From the sequence record OR228459.1: a stretch of 64,000 bases of DNA, one strand, 5' to 3'. How positions within the stretch are numbered: position 1 is the stretch's first letter; every line of letters begins with the position of its first letter. A model generated the notes under the pieces. That model made no database searches. It was not told the DNA's origin and worked only from the letters and a program-made list of their open reading frames with translations. The position numbers were made by a program, and so were the translations under genes. The DNA is from Klebsiella phage fENko-Kae01. This document shows positions 59,131 to 60,436 of the stretch, piece after piece.

Positions 59131-59162
59131 GATCTGGTTGACAACCGATCTGGTTGACAACA
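59131..59162 (+). repeat. tandem direct repeat 2 x 16 bp (GATCTGGTTGACAAC), each unit carrying a TTGACA
   Basis: two perfect adjacent copies upstream of the autotransporter-like gene. Confidence 0.7.
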
Positions 59163-59182
59163 TTATAACAATCCCATATAAT
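59154..59182 (+). promoter_or_regulatory. sigma70-type promoter
   Basis: second-repeat TTGACA-17-TATAAT. Confidence 0.5.
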
Positions 59183-59218
59183 AAACGTCTGGTTAATTAT
59201 AAAAGGTATATTTAAATA

Positions 59219-60436
59219 ATGAAAAAAGCTATTCTGGGAATTACAATTGGTATCGTACTATCATCCACTAATGTTTATGCAAATGACAATAATAACACAT
59301 ATAATTATGGGGATTTAACAGGTTCAGCAGTTTTCAACAATAAAAATAATACTGAAATTAATGTGAATGGAAATGTATCTGGTTCTGTTGCAATTTACGG
59401 CGATAAAGTAACTGTCATTGAGCGTGGAGAGAAAGGCGAAACCGGGGCTAATGGTAAAGACGGTAAAGATGGTCTTAATGGCAAAGATGGTAAAGACGGT
59501 AAAGATGCAGACATGACGATCGTCAATAATAAAGTTGATAAAAGTGATTACGATGTAGATCAAAAACGCCATGAAGAAAATTTAAATACATTAAAAGACG
59601 GAATTGAAACATGGAATAATTGGGCTTCTCATGATTCTAAAGAACAATGGGATTCTATTATTGATTTAGAAGATAATAAAGCTAATAAAAAAGATCTTGA
59701 GTCAGAAACACAAACACGTGTAAATGAAAATAAAAAATTACATGAAAAGATTGATAATTCTATTGAAAATCAATCATCGCGGGACAATGAACAAGATATT
59801 CTAATTAGTAATAAAGTGGATAAATCAACTTTTGAAAATGAATCAACACTCATGAAGGATGTAATTGACACTAAAGTAGATAAAACATCGTTTGAAGATG
59901 AAATCATCATTATCAAAAAGAGAAATAGCGAAAGTCAAAATAACATTGATAAAAATAAAAATGAACAAGATTTCATTAATAAAAATCAAAATGTAAGTAT
60001 TAAAAATAATACAAATGCAATTGAGGTTGAACGTGAAGAACGCAAGCAATCTATTTCTTCTGTAAATACAAAATTGAATAATCATGAATCACGTATTGAA
60101 TCAAATACTCAAAGAATCAATACAGTGGAAAAAAGAACCAATGAATTTATGCATTCAACAAATAAACGGTTTTCTGAAATGAATAAAAAAATCGACGAAA
60201 ATCGTAAAATTTCCAGTGCTGGTATCGCTAGTTCCGGTGCAATGGCAAACATTCCACAATTATCTAAATATGGTGATTTTTCAATTGGGGCAGGTGTTGG
60301 TGGATATGATGGTCAAGAAGCAATTGCAGTAGGTTTTAGTGCACGGATTTCTGAAAATGTATCAACTAAAGCATCCGTAAGTACTAATACTCAATCTGAA
60401 GTATTGTGGGGTGCTGGTGTAGGAATTGAATGGTAA
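59219..60436 (+). CDS. trimeric autotransporter adhesin-like protein: signal peptide, collagen-like repeat, coiled coil, YadA-type C-terminal anchor
   Basis: MKKAILGITIGIVLSSTNVYA signal; GEKGETGANGKDGKDGLNGKDGKDGKD Gly-X-Y repeats; C-terminus ...GAMANIPQL...FSIGAGVGGYDGQEAIAVGFSARISENVSTKASVS...GAGVGIEW matches the YadA anchor consensus ending in W. Confidence 0.65.
   Translation: MKKAILGITIGIVLSSTNVYANDNNNTYNYGDLTGSAVFNNKNNTEINVNGNVSGSVAIYGDKVTVIERGEKGETGANGKDGKDGLNGKDGKDGKDADMTIVNNKVDKSDYDVDQKRHEENLNTLKDGIETWNNWASHDSKEQWDSIIDLEDNKANKKDLESETQTRVNENKKLHEKIDNSIENQSSRDNEQDILISNKVDKSTFENESTLMKDVIDTKVDKTSFEDEIIIIKKRNSESQNNIDKNKNEQDFINKNQNVSIKNNTNAIEVEREERKQSISSVNTKLNNHESRIESNTQRINTVEKRTNEFMHSTNKRFSEMNKKIDENRKISSAGIASSGAMANIPQLSKYGDFSIGAGVGGYDGQEAIAVGFSARISENVSTKASVSTNTQSEVLWGAGVGIEW

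Follow-up and report, generated by a model that had tools for sequence, protein, structure and literature searches.

A putative YadA-anchored fibre protein with a collagen-like tract encoded by a virulent RaK2-like jumbo phage

Trimeric autotransporters (type Vc secretion) are exported by Sec, form a trimeric 12-stranded barrel that depends on the barrel assembly machinery (BAM), and extrude their passenger. In Yersinia YadA, which follows a head-stalk-anchor logic, we know of no collagen tract. Phage-borne members have been described: EibA, EibC and EibD of E. coli ECOR-9 combine a coiled-coil stalk with a YadA-type anchor and are produced by the lysogen as factors of lysogenic conversion. 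Collagen repeats occur in the passengers of a bacterial group, the VtaA proteins of Glaesserella (Haemophilus) parasuis, and contribute to adhesion (PMC6755704). For virulent phages, annotations and discussions of YadA-anchor genes go back to 2012-2013, beginning with the GAP32_424 'adhesin', and describe the genes as putative virulence or auxiliary factors (PMC3728262, 2013; PMC10654107, 2023), and the novelty of finding one had been overstated. In full-text searches of the published literature such genes of virulent phages were mentioned at the level of annotation, and no study of their function was found. What autotransporter adhesins do in strictly virulent phages is a question of small scope, but the genes regularly receive the wrong label of tail protein, or raise a 'virulence gene' flag when phages for therapy are screened for safety. 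We analysed 64,000 nucleotides of Klebsiella phage fENko-Kae01 (OR228459.1; this whole stretch is called the window below), in which an initial annotation had described one open reading frame (ORF) as a host outer-membrane adhesin of this type (Table 1). We consider it probable that the gene encodes a genuine type Vc outer-membrane protein of a virulent RaK2-like jumbo phage, and that this protein coats the infected cell.

Domain architecture, family and genomic setting

The C-terminus carries the assignment. The Pfam profile YadA_anchor (PF03895) matched residues 346-405 over profile positions 1-60 of 60, scoring 67.4 bits (E=1.1e-18) where 22.7 bits is the cutoff, which agrees with the YadA-type anchor of about 70 residues read from the sequence by the initial annotation. 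With phmmer, residues 316-405 aligned to the solved YadA anchor 2lme (E=1.6e-10), and the solved Hia anchor was also found (E=1.5e-5). The structure was modelled as a monomer with AlphaFold2 from an alignment of 35 family members. In this model a helix running to residue 343 is followed by strands at 354-363, 366-378, 381-390 and 395-403, with a predicted local distance difference test (pLDDT) score of 75-85. Foldseek matched the modelled anchor to those of Hia (2gr7, 3emo, 2gr8), AtaA (9vnj) and YadA (2lme) with E-values of 3e-7 to 6e-5; the superpositions gave template modelling (TM) scores of 0.65-0.87 on the target and root-mean-square deviations of 1.6-2.0 Å. The protein ends in ...GAGVGIEW, an aromatic C-terminal residue as had been claimed, and the terminal Trp is found in 120/120 homologues. 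This count, like those of signal peptides and collagen runs below, refers to the best 120 of the 246 relatives that were found at E<=1e-5 in a search of 5.8 billion proteins. An assignment to YadA proper was rejected, since the NCBIfam model NF033478 scored 46.8 bits against a cutoff of 750 and matched the anchor region alone.

The N-terminus (MKKAILGITIGIVLSSTNVYA|NDNN; it starts with MKK and ends with VYA|N) has the features of a Sec signal peptide, as originally proposed: two Lys residues, a hydrophobic core with a maximum of 2.74 on the Kyte-Doolittle scale (11-residue stretches) and a cleavage motif of the form V-x-A. A signal-peptide-like N-terminus is present in 111 of the 120 homologues, and the remaining ones resemble mis-called starts or truncations. 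A ribosome-binding site is annotated in the Munch record at the position equivalent to that of the weak Shine-Dalgarno-like AAGGT in the window. In the AlphaFold2 model the cap that follows contains two short strands of low confidence. No head domain (YadA_head/Hep_Hag) was detected in a Pfam search for head, neck and stalk families at E<=1, nor with NCBIfam. A canonical head is not needed for membership of the trimeric autotransporters, as the anchor alone defines the family. The stalk contains 13.1% N, 10.1% K and 8.6% E. A motif, KVDK[ST]x[FY], occurs in it three times, at residues 105-111, 199-205 and 219-225 (59531-59551, 59813-59833 and 59873-59893), and is present too in the aligned stalks of the jumbo-phage orthologues; its recurrence could reflect a module repeated along the stalk, or shifts in register. 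Every element described in the initial annotation was found where it had been placed.

Table 1. Features of the trimeric-autotransporter-type gene and its upstream region in the window.
Feature	Position	Strand	Basis
Perfect tandem duplication, 2 x 16 bp (CGATCTGGTTGACAAC)	59130..59161	+	Tandem Repeats Finder (TRF): period 16, 2.0 copies, 100% identical
Weaker promoter-like site from the upstream repeat copy, TTGACA-17-CATTAT, 10/12	59138..59166	+	promoter scan
Core promoter, TTGACA (59154-59159)-17-TATAAT (59177-59182), 12/12 sigma-70 consensus	59154..59182	+	promoter scan
Shine-Dalgarno-like AAGGT, weak, 12-16 nt before ATG	59203..59207	+	sequence
Coding sequence, trimeric-autotransporter-type protein, 405 aa plus stop	59219..60436	+	ORF list, profile searches
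Putative Sec-type signal peptide, aa 1-21	59219..59281	+	sequence features, homologue conservation
Asn-rich N-terminal cap, aa 22-69, distal tip of passenger	59282..59425	+	Pfam, alignment, AlphaFold2
Collagen-like tract, nine G-X-Y triplets, aa 70-96	59426..59506	+	sequence, repeat scan, alignment
N/K/E-rich stalk, aa 97-345, helix predicted 108-343	59507..60253	+	AlphaFold2, composition, motif positions
YadA-type membrane anchor, aa 346-405, strands modelled 354-403, terminal Trp	60254..60433	+	Pfam, phmmer, AlphaFold2, Foldseek

The best match among phage protein families was PHROG 17426 'adhesin' (E=1e-56). In most of the best 120 of the 246 relatives PF01391 (Collagen) was found together with PF03895, and their genes lie on contigs of about 70-73 kb or 343-371 kb. 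The family alignment has a coherent order of signal peptide, Asn-rich cap, collagen tract, DADMT-VN junction, helical stalk and anchor. To the same family belong the phage YadA-anchor 'adhesin' genes GAP32_424, fHe-Yen9-04 g441, those of FSL SP-058/076 and TR2 ('agglutinating adhesin') and phiEco32 gene 119. Like these proteins, the window protein has a signal peptide, a cap, a collagen-like tract and/or predicted coiled coil and a W-ending anchor. Its gene likewise has a non-structural location and is syntenic with the jumbo-phage orthologues, to which the protein is 38-43% identical over about 75% of the query. At 405 aa it has, however, a shorter passenger than its jumbo-phage counterparts, which measure 528-577 aa, and it has nine triplets against 26-57 in most N4-like versions. 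It also lacks the two cysteines of a cap motif (SQC...NC) that is kept in many members, and its promoter contains a private 16-bp duplication, unlike those of the other phage adhesins.

A relative of the C-terminal 143 residues is encoded by 88 of 50,697 phage records in INPHARED. The RaK2-like jumbo carriers include the Munch group, GAP32, fHe-Yen9-03/04, XbC2 and Kaldavass, and the N4-like carriers include TR2, FSL SP-058/076 and S6. Further carriers are phiEco32-like phages, the T4-like phage SKML-39 and Aeromonas jumbo phages, and the temperate P-Eib phages have more distant relatives. Many Enterobacterales have chromosomal relatives of the anchor and distal stalk, the closest being 40-48% identical. 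About 25 of those inspected had no collagen run, the exceptions being Ewingella and Yersinia loci. The idea that the collagen-plus-anchor architecture is exclusive to phages was rejected on account of these loci (chromosomal or prophage) and of the bacterial VtaA proteins.

The likeness to the other known systems is less close. The Eib proteins share 27-28% identity with the window protein over residues 16-143 of the 143-residue C-terminal query, outside the collagen tract. They are encoded on prophages ('Enterobacteria phage P-Eib' records), whereas the window gene is carried by a virulent jumbo phage, and they represent a different lineage. The VtaA proteins are much larger (VtaA2, 1225 aa), have YadA-like head repeats and are chromosomal virulence factors of a pathogen; their likeness to the window protein is one of domain types. 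With YadA, the window protein shares anchor homology and the head-stalk-anchor logic, but it has no Hep_Hag or YadA head repeats by Pfam.

The window belongs to a jumbo myovirus and shares about 98% identity with Salmonella phage Munch (350 kb), 7t3, SE_PL and PHA46. This phage group has been placed among the RaK2-like phages, beside Eneladusvirus and Mimasvirus (PMC7760394; PMC10213699). Around the ORF lie genes for membrane proteins or for small proteins without known function, with tRNA genes scattered among them, and no structural PHROG was matched among these neighbours. Synteny is kept across the Munch-like phages, Eneladusvirus and Mimasvirus. The fHe-Yen9-04 gene g441 and GAP32_424 (annotated as 'adhesin; PF03895 YadA') share the syntenic slot of the window gene, with a membrane protein gene and a tRNA gene upstream and a 243-nt ORF and another membrane protein gene downstream. 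Elsewhere in the family, phiEco32 gene 119 lies among small hypothetical genes, and in the N4-like phage TR2 the gene lies between an RNA polymerase gene and the dUTPase gene. The TR2 location agrees with what Moreno Switt et al. noted for FSL SP-058/076, in which no tail genes lie close to the homologues (2013, PMC3728262).

Variation in the collagen-like tract and the promoter

The initial annotation had counted nine or more Gly-X-Y triplets; the tract is an uninterrupted run of exactly nine, followed by the conserved DADMT-VN junction. Pfam Collagen (PF01391) scored 23.7 bits on the ORF, just under its cutoff of 27.2, and precomputed PF01391 hits exist for close relatives having 21-27 triplets. 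At the DNA level the tract consists of 9/18/27-bp repeats (TRF), which are prone to slippage. Among alleles of the gene that are otherwise about 97-100% identical, the number of triplets is 9 in this window, 21 in Munch, 26 in 7t3 (once the 116 nt by which the record's ends overlap had been removed) and 27 in each of two independent Salmonella assemblies. The window allele is the shortest among the close relatives compared, and runs of 0 to 57 triplets occur across the homologues. The differences in length may represent true slippage or, for the shortest allele, collapse of the repeat during assembly. The records MK773491 (7t3), MT001829 (SE_PL) and PP191103 (PHA46) were linearised inside this gene, at the collagen repeat (window ~59367-59480). 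For this reason the 7t3 and SE_PL records have no annotation of the gene, while the PHA46 record has it as a 'tail protein' whose parts are joined over the origin. The break in these records most likely arose in assembly and not from a physical end of the genome.

The two perfect 16-bp tandem copies, each with a TTGACA, that had been noted upstream of the gene are present. The -35 element of the 12/12 promoter, which sits 37 nt upstream of the ATG, is that of the downstream copy. To place the repeat, the upstream region was aligned with those of six close relatives (Munch, 7t3, PHA46, SE_PL and contigs of two Salmonella assemblies). All six read ...AATGG-GGTTGACAGC-ATTAT... with a single -35 element and have the same core promoter save one spacer base. 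Relative to them the window has a 22-nt insertion, consisting of CGATCT plus the 16-bp duplication, that is private to this genome. As the six relatives have a single copy with an identical core promoter, we read the duplication as a private insertion. By this alignment it is a recent strain-specific change outside the conserved design. The more distant orthologues have upstream promoters of their own, TTGACA-17-TACAAT in fHe-Yen9-04 and TTGACT-17-TATGAT in GAP32.

The initial annotation had suggested that the repeat marks regulated or dual promoters, and a functional dual or Dam-regulated promoter giving altered or switchable fibre expression was considered. The duplication does add a second TTGACA, which gains a 10/12 partner -10 element, and it brings two GATC sites (59131 and 59147). 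The 10/12 site is, however, missing from all six close relatives, which retain the single 12/12 promoter. Elsewhere in the window the 16-bp unit has only matches with three mismatches (a total of 5 matches, near the chance expectation of 1.89). The repeat is most simply read as a neutral polymorphism, due to slippage or insertion, in front of a promoter that was optimal already. We therefore rejected a dual or regulated promoter as a conserved feature, and consider it unlikely that the repeat acts as one in this genome.

The core promoter is one of many. Between 15454 and 60480 the window contains 12 TTGACA-17-TATAAT sites with at most one mismatch, eight of them perfect and all on the + strand, against 1.59 expected; these consensus promoters run in the same direction as the genes. 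On their sequence, the twelve probably mark a large gene block read early by the host polymerase.

Proposed role and alternative explanations

The conserved export signals, the non-structural location and the host-type promoters favour an outer-membrane fate of the protein. As judged from sequence, the gene's own sigma-70 promoter in a non-structural region and the absence of structural neighbours support the host outer membrane, not the virion, as its probable destination. Part of what the initial annotation had proposed for a host outer-membrane adhesin is thus retained, namely the anchor and its fold, the terminal Trp, the signal peptide and the genomic setting; the regulated or dual promoter design is not. 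The proposed course of events is as follows. Host RNA polymerase would transcribe the gene from the start of infection, and the precursor would pass the inner membrane via Sec. BAM would then insert three anchors as one 12-stranded barrel. The passenger would thread outward and fold into a fibre of roughly 45 nm, composed of a helical stalk of about 35 nm (236 residues x 0.148 nm), a collagen triple helix of about 8 nm (27 residues at 0.286 nm) and the small cap. The infected cell would in this way be coated with phage-specified fibres.

Several points weigh against this reading or limit it. The heptad periodicity over the whole stalk is marginal, its 3.5-residue power being matched by 4.9% of shuffles. 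For this reason we call the stalk predicted helical and do not claim a coiled coil as proven, so that of the N/K/E-rich coiled-coil stalk originally proposed the composition and the predicted helix stand, while the heptad signal is equivocal. Residues 1-108 were modelled poorly (AlphaFold2 monomer, pLDDT below 50), and for the cap within them no Pfam family and no recognisable binding domain were found. The presence of the Sec signal peptide is judged on sequence features and homologue conservation. Among the matches listed there was no Klebsiella phage and no Asteriusvirus, because of which the gene looks accessory rather than essential. The nine-triplet allele might have arisen by collapse of the repeat in assembly. 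That the protein is made early, trimerises and is displayed at the surface is inferred, as is any phenotype, and the computation does not separate the three roles considered next.

The role that we favour is a steric shielding of the surface at the level of lipopolysaccharide (LPS), which might keep off superinfecting phages and prevent the phage's own progeny from sticking to infected cells or debris. Phage envelope proteins that alter adsorption or surface properties are well known, such as Llp of T5, Cor of lambdoid phages and Lom and Bor of lambda. The likeness to these would be functional only, their folds and sizes being unrelated, and they act on specific receptors (e.g. FhuA) whereas the shielding proposed here would be steric. 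Shielding is plausible because EJP2, the closest relative with a mapped receptor, uses LPS (PMC10213699). In second place, the fibres might clump infected cells or attach them to neighbours or surfaces, since trimeric autotransporters commonly confer autoaggregation (PMC7568254). In third place, a benefit to carrier-state hosts that resembles conversion can be envisaged. Near-identical copies of the jumbo phage were found as single contigs in assemblies of Salmonella enterica isolates (GCA_035921345, 343 kb; GCA_019551135, 353 kb), consistent with the reported persistence of Asterius-like (RaK2-like) jumbo phages in bacterial isolates (bioRxiv 10.1101/2024.12.31.630880). These contigs and that report make the carrier-state role plausible.

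A wider reading, which we put forward tentatively and think rather doubtful as it stands, is that virulent enterobacterial phages of several unrelated lineages share a minimal 'collagen-stalk' autotransporter lineage of their own for surface conversion in the lytic or carrier state. Fibres reaching beyond the LPS from the first minutes of infection would exclude competing phages and/or glue infected cells to neighbours that are susceptible. With its 9 to 57 triplets, the slippage-prone tract would serve as a rapidly adjustable spacer that tunes the length of the fibre to the O-antigen or capsule of the host. If the proteins were shown to belong to the envelope of the infected cell, annotations could be corrected and a structurally simple and testable example of lytic or persistent phages remodelling the host surface would be gained. 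To this family the present locus adds one ordinary member and two small facts, namely that the collagen tract is hypervariable and that the promoter has a duplication specific to this strain.

The gene could also be a passenger without a lytic role, a recently captured adhesin (moron) that is neutral or useful only as a transferred virulence gene, as the papers of 2013 and 2023 suggested (PMC3728262; PMC10654107). The patchy distribution among phage records fits such an origin, as do the identity of the anchor and distal stalk to Enterobacterales chromosomal autotransporters and the treatment of the gene in the literature as a putative virulence or auxiliary gene. On the other hand, in three jumbo-phage genera orthologues of about 40% identity keep the position, frame, signal peptide, anchor and private promoter, which argues for long-term purifying selection inside virulent phages. 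Moreover, the phage versions group as a separate family with cap, collagen, DADMT junction, coiled coil and anchor, and the tract is missing from about 25 chromosomal relatives. A mere passenger is, in our opinion, improbable.

A virion component, that is a collagen-containing tail fibre or receptor-binding protein, was suggested by several database labels ('tail protein', 'tail fibers protein', 'receptor binding protein'). The ORF matched PHROG 26246 'tail protein' (E=3.2e-46), PHROG 17426 is filed in the category 'tail', the collagen tract weakly matches tail-fibre PHROGs, and the records of PHA46, TR2, SP154, UTK0002 and fHe-Yen8-01 have tail or receptor-binding labels. These labels are transferred family names, not experiments. 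Virions of tailed phages assemble in the cytoplasm, whereas the window protein and 111 of the 120 homologues have what looks like a cleavable export signal and all of them have the terminal-Trp anchor. The gene lies outside the structural modules in jumbo, N4-like and phiEco32-like phages, and its promoter is of the host type. The supplementary tables of related Erwinia jumbo phages, which include virion mass spectrometry, contain no adhesin, YadA, autotransporter or collagen entry, a weak test as these phages may lack the gene. On family labels, context and conserved export signals, a virion fibre was rejected as very unlikely. Least likely is a spanin-like disruption of the outer membrane late in infection, for which the predicted insertion into that membrane and the report of only an o-spanin-like gene and no i-spanin in related jumbo phages (PMC7760394) could be cited, since the promoter is host-type and not in a late setting, the gene does not adjoin lysis genes, and the protein is built like a stable surface fibre, the anchors of the matched structures being closed barrels plugged by their own helices.

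Elements downstream of the gene and elsewhere in the window

Directly after the stop codon lies a GGGGG-N9-CCCCC hairpin (60447-60465) with the -35 element of the next promoter in its loop; it is not followed by a T-run, and the terminator scan gave no call. This next promoter, TTGACA-17-TAAAAT at 60452-60480, precedes a degenerate tRNA-like element at 60482-60564 (+). Its acceptor stem is 7 bp long and its T-arm (GTGGTTCGATTCCAC) canonical, and its anticodon-like loop, GUUCAUA, can be aligned with the UCA anticodon of tRNA-Sec. Against the Rfam tRNA-Sec model it scored 19.3 bits, with a gathering score of 47 (E=0.22). ARAGORN made no call at default settings and gave a different, poor cloverleaf at a relaxed setting, and the fold was not better than those of shuffles. 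The element probably represents a tRNA gene that has decayed. The orthologues in GAP32 and fHe-Yen9-04 are adjoined by a tRNA-Leu gene instead. Far upstream in the window, at 44454-44544, ARAGORN identified a tRNA-Ser with the anticodon ACT, which is unusual for a bacterial-type tRNA-Ser.

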